Below are positions 1,449-23,915 of a stretch of DNA of 23,915 nt, in pieces. Position 1 is the stretch's first letter. Every line of letters starts with the position of its first letter. The DNA is from a virus. Lineage: Duplodnaviria; Heunggongvirae; Uroviricota; Caudoviricetes. A program made the translations under genes and the position numbers. The DNA lies in IMG/VR virus record IMGVR_UViG_2554235190_000005, positions 1-23,915 of that record; one strand, 5' to 3'. Under the pieces are notes generated by a model. The model saw only the letters and a program-made list of their open reading frames with translations. It was not told where the DNA came from and did no database searches.

Positions 1449-2105
1449 CTATTTAACATACTTGACTGTTAAACTTATAATTTTACCAATTATTTCAATG
1501 TCTTCTATCTTGCATTCGAAGGCTCTGTTTCCACCCTCGACGAAGATTCTTCCACCGGGTAAACGAGTAATGTCACGGATCGTTATTTCGCCATCAATAC
1601 TTATTACCCATTTACCATCACGTATATCATCAAATTCTTTATCACAAATAAATTCAGAATTGTTATCTGTGATGACAAAAGGTTTTTTAAACGTAGAGGG
1701 TAGAAATCCCTTATCAAAAATATAAAAACCGTCTTTCTGCAATGCTCCATCAGACAATAAATATTTTTCTACTTCTATAGTATTTGTATTTGCTGATGCT
1801 TGCTTTGAACCATGCCCTGTTGTTAGCCAATTAAGCGAGGTGCCCGTTTCAAGGGCGCACTGGATTACCCAATCTGCTGGAAAAATATCACGCATATAGC
1901 GCGTTGCCATGGTGCTCTTAGAAACACCTAAATGATCACATAGAGCCTGACGGGTACCGAACCCATATGCTTCAACTAAACGTTCTATGGCTTTCTTACC
2001 GCCGCTATTGAAATCCACAAGTCCTCCAAAGAAATCCAAAATTCGTTGACAGATTCCAAAAGCGATCTTAAAGTTGAACCAGAAGTGTTCTTTTGGAGCC
2101 TTCAC
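1449..2105 (-). CDS. cI: CI-type immunity repressor (186-like)
   Basis: 218-aa ORF divergent from the apl/cII operon; helix-turn-helix-like segment (..TRQALCDHLGVSKSTMATRYMR..); position and orientation match 186 cI. Start at 2105 is a GTG (no in-frame ATG until after the HTH), so the exact N-terminus is uncertain. Confidence 0.7.
   Translation of the reverse strand: MKAPKEHFWFNFKIAFGICQRILDFFGGLVDFNSGGKKAIERLVEAYGFGTRQALCDHLGVSKSTMATRYMRDIFPADWVIQCALETGTSLNWLTTGHGSKQASANTNTIEVEKYLLSDGALQKDGFYIFDKGFLPSTFKKPFVITDNNSEFICDKEFDDIRDGKWVISIDGEITIRDITRLPGGRIFVEGGNRAFECKIEDIEIIGKIISLTVKYVK
2046..2074 (+). promoter_or_regulatory. Candidate rightward lytic promoter (pR-like): TTGACA-N17-TAAAGT
   Basis: TTGACA at 2046-2051, 17-nt spacer, TAAAGT at 2069-2074, upstream of apl (ATG 2164). 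In 186 pR and pL are face-to-face, so a promoter inside the cI 5' region is expected. Motif match only. Confidence 0.3.
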
Positions 2106-2163: not shown

Positions 2164-2367
2164 ATGACACCTAACATTTCAATTACTCTGAATACACCAC
2201 ATGTCACAATCGAACGTTATAGCGAACTGACTGGCCTTTCTATTGATACGATTAACGACATGTTGGCTGATGGCCGACTACCTCGTCATCGTCTTCGTAA
2301 AGACAAAAAACGTGAAAAGGTAATGATTAACCTGGCTGCTCTGACTGTTGATGCTTTGTCTGCTTAA
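2164..2367 (+). CDS. apl: Apl-like excisionase / lytic-switch regulator (Cox/Apl functional analogue)
   Basis: 67-aa first gene of the rightward operon, divergent from cI, directly upstream of cII; small basic protein (..[15 protein letters not shown]..). Assigned by position and size, not by sequence identity. Confidence 0.55.
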
Positions 2368-2431
2368 TAGACGTCTATTTTCGCAATAAGACGCTGAGTT
2401 CGATTTTGCGATAAGTTCGGAGTTGAAAACC

Positions 2432-2458
2432 ATGTTTGATTACCAAGTTTCCAAACAT
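2432..2458. promoter_or_regulatory. Candidate CII operator: inverted half-sites ATGTTTG (2432-2438) and CAAACAT (2452-2458), 20 bp start-to-start (pE-like)
   Basis: Perfect 7-bp inverted repeat two helical turns apart at the start of cII; matches my recollection of the 186 CII site architecture at the establishment promoter pE. Confidence 0.45.
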
Positions 2459-2941
2459 CCACATTTTGATGAAGCCTGTCGTGCATTCGCACTGCGCCAC
2501 AATCTGGTGCAACTGGCAGAACGTGCGGGCATGAATGTGCAGATTCTGCGGAACAAGCTGAACCCAGCTCAACCTCATTTATTAACCGCACCAGAAATCT
2601 GGCTGCTTACCGATCTGACTGAAGATTCAACGTTGGTAGATGGTTTTCTGGCACAGATTCATTGTCTGCCATGTGTACCGATTAATGAGGTAGCAAAAGA
2701 GAAACTGCCGCATTACGTCATGAGCGCAACTGCAGAGATCGGGCGTGTTGCAGCAGGTGCGGTATCTGGTGATGTAAAAACTAGTGCCGGTCGTCGTGAT
2801 GCTATCAGCAGCATTAACTCTGTAACACGACTGATGGCGCTGGCTGCTGTTTCATTGCAGGCCCGTTTACAGGCTAATCCTGCGATGGCGAGTGCAGTTG
2901 ATACCGTGACTGGCCTCGGTGCTTCATTCGGTTTGCTGTGA
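2432..2941 (+). CDS. cII: CII-type lysogeny-establishment activator (186-like)
   Basis: Translation from ATG 2432 begins [24 protein letters not shown].., strongly reminiscent of 186 CII; GGAG 9 nt upstream. The track ORF starts 9 nt earlier at a TTG. Confidence 0.75.
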
Positions 2942-22809: not shown

Positions 22810-23915
22810 GCACAAAATTTTATACCCTGCTGACGGATATTGGCGCGGCGAAACTTGCCAGCGCCGCCGCGCTCGGTGTGCCACTAAAAATTACCCATAT
22901 GGCGGTGGGCGATGGCGGCGGGGTATTGCCAACGCCGGACGCAAAGCAGACTGCACTGGTAAATGAGAAACGCCGGGCTGCGCTGAATATGCTCTATATC
23001 GACCCGCAGAACAGCAGCCAGATTATTGCTGAACAGGTGATCCCTGAAAACGAGGGCGGTTGGTGGATACGTGAAGTGGGCCTGTTTGATGAGTCCGGAG
23101 CATTGATTGCCGTGGGCAACTGCCCGGAAAGCTATAAGCCGCAACTGGCTGAAGGCAGCGGGCGCACCCAGACCGTGCGCATGGTGCTGATTACCAGCAG
23201 CACGGACAATATCACCCTGAAAATCGACCCTGCCGTAGTGCTGGCAACCCGCAAGTATGTGGATGACAAGGTACTGGAGCTGAAAGTGTACGTGGATGAC
23301 CTGATGGCAAAACATCTTGCCGCACAGGACCCACATTCACAGTATGCGCCAAAAGCCAGCCCGACATTTACCGGAACCCCCAAAGCGCCAACGCCAGCGG
23401 CGGGGAATAATACTACGCAGATTGCGACCACCGCGTTTGTACAGGCGGCACTGCTCACCCTGATTGACGGTGCACCAGCCACGCTGGACACGCTGAAAGA
23501 AATTGCAGCTGCTATTAATAATGACCCGAAATTCAGTACCACCATTAACAATACGCTGGCACTCAAAGCACCGCTGTCGAGTCCGGCACTCACCGGAACG
23601 CCAACAGCACCTACTGCGGCACAGTCGGTCAACAATACACAGATTGCCACCACGGCTTTTGTGAAATCGGCAATTGCGGCAATGGTGGGTTCTGCACCTG
23701 CGGCACTGGATACGCTGAACGAACTGGCGGCGGCGCTGGGGAATGACCCGAACTTTGCCACGACAATGCTCAATTCGCTGGCGGGAAAACAACCGCTGGA
23801 TAATACGCTGACTAATTTGAGTGGAAAGGATGTAGCTGGTCTTCTCGCATACCTTGGTTTGGGGGAAGCGGCAAAACGGTGGGTTGGTACAGGAGAAAAT
23901 CAGATTCCTGACATG
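22806..23915 (+). CDS. H: Tail fibre protein (P2 gpH-like), N-terminal part; runs off the 3' end of the window
   Basis: Open frame from ATG 22806 to the window end (370 codons, no stop): MSTKFYTLLTDIGAAKLASAAALGVPLKITHMAVGDGGG... typical of the conserved H N-terminus; ATGA-coupled to I. Absent from the ORF track because no stop falls inside the window. Confidence 0.85.
   Translation, partial: MSTKFYTLLTDIGAAKLASAAALGVPLKITHMAVGDGGGVLPTPDAKQTALVNEKRRAALNMLYIDPQNSSQIIAEQVIPENEGGWWIREVGLFDESGALIAVGNCPESYKPQLAEGSGRTQTVRMVLITSSTDNITLKIDPAVVLATRKYVDDKVLELKVYVDDLMAKHLAAQDPHSQYAPKASPTFTGTPKAPTPAAGNNTTQIATTAFVQAALLTLIDGAPATLDTLKEIAAAINNDPKFSTTINNTLALKAPLSSPALTGTPTAPTAAQSVNNTQIATTAFVKSAIAAMVGSAPAALDTLNELAAALGNDPNFATTMLNSLAGKQPLDNTLTNLSGKDVAGLLAYLGLGEAAKRWVGTGENQIPDM
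23380..23800 (+). repeat. Tandem in-frame duplication of a ~74-codon (222-nt) motif inside tail fibre H
   Basis: NNTTQIATTAFVQAAL...APATLDTLKEIAAAINNDPKFSTTINNTLA.K.PL recurs as VNNTQIATTAFVKSAI...APAALDTLNELAAALGNDPNFATTMLNSLAGKQPL; nucleotide copies begin about 23415 and 23637. Confidence 0.7.

Follow-up and report, generated by a model that had tools for sequence, protein, structure and literature searches.

CII of phage 186 binds an inverted repeat whose two halves lie two helical turns apart, at -38 and -58 of the establishment promoter pE (PMC6593788). Upon CII induction pE rises from ~5 to ~1140 LacZ units, and CII bound to the DNA is no block to polymerases coming from pR (PMC6593788). 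pE is the sole CII-activated promoter of 186, and the cII- mutation V36E/Q37S falls within the helix-turn-helix of the protein (PMC7708051). In the GenBank record NC_001317 the CII site (protein_bind 'CII; activate pE') is placed at 23435..23462, beginning at the cII ATG; pE (minus strand) takes up 23400..23462, and FR, a site for CI, 23404..23420. The 186 sequence at the CII site is ATGTTTGATTTTCAGGTTTCCAAACAT. The half-site sequence of 186 used here rests on this annotation and the -38/-58 positions on PMC6593788.

The logic of lambda pRE is alike, in that the lytic transcript yields an unstable activator for a leftward promoter without a good -35 (PMC6593788, PMC7708051). Like pE, pRE reads antisense through the lytic repressor gene into cI, and it is convergent with pR at a similar distance (PMC6593788, PMC7708051). 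Lambda CII is unrelated to the CII of the window (the whole stretch of 23,915 nucleotides that we analysed), which matches PF06892 and no other Pfam family. The binding site of lambda CII consists of direct repeats, TTGC-N6-TTGC, on either side of the -35, whereas the site in the window is not of the lambda type but an inverted repeat with a 13-nt spacer, its half-sites being two helical turns apart and upstream of the -35 position. The switch of P2, from the same family Peduoviridae, likewise has convergent lytic and lysogenic promoters. It is without a CII-like factor and without an establishment promoter (PMC7708051).

We consider it very probable that the inverted repeat at the start of cII in the window is a 186-type CII operator at a pE-type establishment promoter, lying on the start of its own activator's gene; for CII binding, activation and the transcription start this reading draws on the experiments with 186. 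The whole site, ATGTTTG-N13-CAAACAT, is a strandless feature at 2432..2458, and ccATGTTTGattaccaagtttcCAAACATcc is the window sequence around it. Its promoter-proximal half-site ATGTTTG (2432..2438, strandless) takes up cII codons 1-2 and the first base of codon 3, and the promoter-distal half-site CAAACAT (2452..2458, strandless) takes up the last base of codon 7 and codons 8-9. The preliminary description had claimed perfect inverted half-sites 20 bp apart here and had stated a match with the 186 CII site. Both statements hold: the half-sites read exactly at these positions, with their centres at 2435 and 2455, and a comparison with the published 186 pE and CII operator finds the same half-sites at the same spacer length on the cII ATG in NC_001317, only 3 spacer bases being different from the window.

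A pattern search for ATGTTTG-N13-CAAACAT gave 1 match in the window and none in 100 dinucleotide-preserving shuffles. Perfect 7-nt inverted repeats with a 13-nt spacer occur six times in the window and are therefore not rare as such, whereas the expected count for the specific 14 half-site bases is ~9e-5. The improbable element is the particular half-site sequence at its particular place, rather than the repeat as such. There is no second CII site in the window, where matches with 3 mismatches stay at chance level, and in having a single site the window resembles 186 with its single CII-activated promoter (PMC7708051).

The first three bases of the left half-site are the ATG start codon of cII at 2432, so that the operator overlaps the first cII codons as it does in 186, where the CDS starts at 23435. 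From this ATG the 169-aa product aligns from M1 residue for residue with 186 CII, and a GGAG ribosome-binding site lies at 2419-2422. A longer, TTG-initiated ORF from 2423 was set aside as a mechanical ORF call.

The genes around the site follow the 186 order of int, cI, pR, apl, cII and fil, and their products CII, CI and Fil belong to the same families as those of 186. The leftmost gene of the window is int, on the minus strand, with matches to integrase families. The cI immunity repressor (1449..2018, minus strand, with the GTG start at 2018 chosen by eye) matches PF07022 and PF16452. The early lytic promoter pR (2046..2074, plus strand) reads TTGACA-17-TAAAGT, with 10/12 matches in a consensus scan, is convergent with the predicted pE and lies in a region that is invariant in related modules. 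The apl/cox-like gene (2164..2367, plus strand, 67 aa) has only a weak similarity to 186 Apl over 20 residues, would be antisense to the predicted pE transcript, and has an equivalent annotated as Cox protein in a close relative. The gene fil (PF10893) comes directly after cII on the same strand. The immunity module upstream of cII differs from that of 186: CI is 33% identical to 186 CI and Apl is barely alignable. The window is a heteroimmune relative of 186, and the site confirms a complete lysis-lysogeny switch of the 186 type, with an immunity specificity of its own. Many E. coli chromosomes carry the switch module at 100% identity, and its coverage reaches 80% or more in 164 of 5426 complete genomes.

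The cognate activator is encoded by cII itself (2432..2941, plus strand, 169 aa). Aligned without gaps along its full 169 residues, the protein has 69% identity to 186 CII, and it scores 144 bits with PF06892 (Phage_CP76). With this family assignment and a recognition helix of the MNVQTLRNKL type, it has the features of the cognate activator. The helix-turn-helix, residues 28-45 (2513..2566, plus strand), was located by alignment with 186 CII, from which it differs by T38I in the recognition helix, a point that counts against the operator reading. At the DNA level cII of the window and of 186 share 69.8% nucleotide identity overall and 47.9% at third positions, while the half-sites agree in 14/14 bases.

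The preliminary description had concluded from the position of the site inside the cII coding sequence that there is a leftward CII-activated promoter, and had proposed a promoter search on the minus strand. The promoter part of this claim stands, although on another footing, namely the homology with 186 and a conserved -10, and not the position within a coding sequence. A two-hexamer consensus scan of the window minus strand found no promoter, as would be expected for an activator-dependent promoter with negligible basal activity. An analysis of the -10 alone points to the hexamer CAAAAT (2403..2408, minus strand), 23 nt from the proximal half-site, which resembles a -10 more than any other hexamer 14-30 nt away and is the candidate pE -10. 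It is a mediocre -10 that matches the consensus at 4/6 positions, and the -35 positions at 16-18 nt spacing from it match at 0-2 of 6, which leaves no recognisable -35. The window and 186 alike have a leftward -10-like hexamer and no -35; the window has CAAAAT at 23 nt, while 186 has TAAAGT at 21 nt.

We scored -10 hexamers by position on the minus strand of 65 distinct upstream sequences, which come from many unrelated immunity modules. Between the proximal half-site and the best -10-like hexamer the distance is 21 nt in 43 sequences, 22 nt in 14 and 23 nt in 5, making 62/65 in total, and two of the three outliers also carry CAGAAT or CAATAT at 21 nt. Over these 65 sequences the mean -10 score is positive at 21 nt only, and the viral set repeats the distance pattern. 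The -10 and the +1 of 186 are our own derivation, based on the limits of the GenBank features together with the published positions -38/-58; if +1 is set at the annotated pE limit, TAAAGT at 21 nt fits those positions. From this geometry, with +1 8 nt after the last -10 base, the predicted pE transcription start in the window is 2395..2397 (minus strand), and the half-sites would lie near -40 and -60 at the 23 nt gap, compared with -38 and -58 in 186. This shift of 2 bp could matter for an activator touching both sigma and alpha. The distance from pR to the predicted pE start is ~315 bp in the window and 340 bp in 186 (PMC6593788).

The region between the predicted start and the operator (2398..2431, minus strand) would form the core of pE. 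It holds no -35, and its plus strand contains the cII ribosome-binding site GGAG. Across five species-level representatives of the window's immunity module this block, which includes the candidate -10, is nearly invariant and 2369-2397 is highly variable, so that the conserved block begins where the promoter should begin.

Read together with the work on 186, these features would give the following course of events. After infection, rightward transcription from pR (2046-2074) would lead to the production of CII, which would bind the two ATGTTTG half-sites, two helical turns apart on one face of the DNA. Bound CII would then recruit RNA polymerase to the leftward promoter, with its -10 at 2408..2403 and no usable -35, and the transcript would start near 2395-2397 and run antisense through apl into cI and int. 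An antisense reading through apl into cI had been anticipated in the preliminary description, and it follows from the gene order shared with 186. The first gene that the predicted transcript would express is cI, and along the leftward path to cI and int we found only weak terminator-like matches. A burst of repressor and integrase from the pE transcript would establish lysogeny.

The point at which DNA homology between 186 and the window sets in is essentially the cII ATG. A first viral scan, in which CII was recovered at 99-100% identity only, showed different immunity modules joined to the same cII. At least three or four immunity modules, unrelated to one another, stand upstream of genes for CII proteins that are 99-100% identical (L002-L081, L082, L083 and L109), and the break between cII and these modules falls within ~3 nt of the cII ATG (2429-2432 in the window). 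With a break at this point, the CII operator travels with cII and the pE -10 travels with the immunity module. It is a tentative proposal, somewhat short of an even chance in our judgement, that pE-type promoters are composite across a recombination junction, with the operator in cII and the -10 in the immunity module. CII at 99-100% identity occurs with modules that place the -10 at 22 or 23 nt, and 186-type CIIs work with it at 21 nt.

The same facts raise the question whether pE is functional in this particular module. CII might still bind while the leftward promoter is weak or dead, with the operator 2 bp too far away and lysogeny arising from pL alone. The gap of 23 nt against 21 nt in 186, a class that accounts for only 5/65 distinct upstream sequences, would fit such a promoter, as would the homology break at the cII ATG that places operator and -10 in different recombination modules. 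We regard a weak or dead pE as very unlikely, although among the rival readings it is the single reservation that we keep, on account of the 23-nt gap. The -10 and 2398-2431 stay nearly invariant in the five species-level representatives next to variable sequence, many E. coli chromosomes carry the module at 100% identity, with coverage of 80% or more in 164/5426 complete genomes, and modules with a 22-nt gap also occur next to the same CII (99-100% identity), which suggests that the distance is tolerated.

CII and its half-sites co-vary. In 7 genome loci with a CII ~60% identical to that of the window, the recognition helix IKPHTLYNKL replaces MNVQTLRNKL, and all 7 carry ATGTTAG-N13-(C/G)TCACAT, that is, half-sites ATGTTAG and ATGTGA[GC]. 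A scan of viral contigs queried with one CII protein of the IKPHTLYNKL type found the altered half-sites ATGTTAG / ATGTGA[GC] in 56/56 viral loci with the helix IKPHTL[YW]N, and ATGTTTG twice in 24/24 loci with the helix [MI]N[VI]QTLRN. The pairing of helix and half-sites in the IKPHTL[YW]N subfamily therefore holds in all 63 loci examined (L142-L148, with the match start mostly at 2501, and L158-L213, at position 401). The change of half-sites in this subfamily costs two N-terminal substitutions, F2L and K8S. Such co-variation is the pattern that a cognate operator should show, and the CII family looks like it holds a natural second specificity class, in which the IKPHTLYN helix goes with ATGTTAG / ATGTGA[GC] half-sites.

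The co-variation also bears on the idea that the repeat acts as RNA, as a hairpin in the cII mRNA that covers the start codon and regulates translation of cII, and is not a protein-binding site. The AUG does lie within the repeat, and base pairing would survive the T-to-A change that both subfamily half-sites show at position 6. But the predicted fold of 2405-2475 does not contain this pairing and is no better than that of shuffled sequence (z = +0.99, with 171/200 shuffles at least as stable), and the stem would consist of only 7 pairs, rich in AU, around a loop of 13 nt. Furthermore, the subfamily arms ATGTTAG / ATGTGA[GC] break one or two pairs, the half-site changes track the CII recognition helix, and the 186 counterpart is an established CII binding site. 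We therefore reject a hairpin over the start codon, on the strength of the fold and the imperfect subfamily arms, and rate its probability as very low.

Selection on the operator bases can be separated from selection on the protein by looking at synonymous positions. Scanning a single genome of each species recovered 75 loci whose CII has 59-100% identity, from which 67 distinct full-length cII genes were used. The scan was seeded with two mid-protein peptides and not with the N-terminus, so that the sample is free of N-terminal bias. Codons 2 and 8, both inside half-sites, are the only 2 of 115 eligible codons without synonymous variation. Phe-2 is TTT in all 60 genes that encode Phe there, whereas the other Phe codons of cII use both TTT and TTC; Lys-8 is AAA in 58/58 genes, Val-6 is GTT in 37/37 and His-9 is CAT in 59/64. 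Synonyms are used freely at codons 10-13 and at the Phe, Lys and His codons elsewhere in cII. The majority third-position base is kept in 79-96% of sequences inside the site, compared with 35-56% just downstream. These patterns indicate that the operator bases are under selection beyond coding need.

That the repeat is a mere by-product of the conserved N-terminal peptide MFD..SKH, with no function at the DNA level, is hardly credible: the peptide is indeed conserved and the window has six perfect 7-nt inverted repeats at this spacing, but this explanation is excluded by the frozen synonymous positions of the half-sites, when those of neighbouring codons and of the other Phe, Lys and His codons are not frozen, and by amino acid changes (F2L, K8S) that fall exactly where the DNA-binding helix changes.

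Several other sequence features lie near the switch. A direct repeat, TTTTCGCAATAAG (2378-2390) and TTTTGCGATAAG (2404-2415), has its second copy overlapping the candidate pE -10, and related modules have instead an inverted pair, CTTATCGC ... GCGATAAG, flanking the -10. In 186 the FR operator sequence for CI overlaps the pE -10, and this sequence is absent from the window. The direct repeat might be the counterpart of FR, but its upstream copy is not conserved in related modules and we make no claim for a CI operator here. An inverted match of 11 nt (91%) between CACAATCGAAC (2205-2215, inside apl) and GTTCGATTTTG (2398-2408, the pE -10 and discriminator) may be due to chance.

Further to the left, an 8-bp perfect inverted repeat, TCCAAAAG (2055-2062) and CTTTTGGA (2090-2097), brackets the pR -10 and is a candidate CI or Apl operator; it lies inside the pR-pL region, which is invariant across related modules. 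A terminator-like hairpin on the minus strand (2124-2142) lies on the path of the leftward transcript, between the apl and cI starts, with 8 pairs followed by a T-rich tail. Its predicted energy is -10.9 kcal/mol, with a modest z of -1.4, its stem is invariant in relatives, and it probably belongs to the leader of the pL transcript. Between cI and int there is a 63-aa ORF on the minus strand (1242-1433) that has a signal-peptide-like N-terminus, several cysteines and no Pfam match, unlike the 186 record, in which cI and int abut with no gene between them. Transcription from pE and pL would take in this ORF together with cI, and it may serve in lysogenic conversion.

The operator described here is already known from 186, and what the window adds is its presence in a prophage that is common in E. 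coli and has another immunity region. The site carries little weight as a discovery; its value is for annotation, as it marks the probable establishment promoter in the prophage. If the 21-, 22- and 23-nt arrangements are all active, CII tolerates a range of 2 bp relative to the -10, and such a tolerance, if true, would be out of the ordinary for a protein in contact with sigma as well as alpha. The IKPHTLYN class could serve as an orthogonal activator and operator pair. For laboratories that work with the 186 switch, whether as a model or for its parts, the comparison yields cheap and testable predictions, namely the frozen synonymous sites in cII, the second specificity class and the 21-23 nt range between operator and -10.
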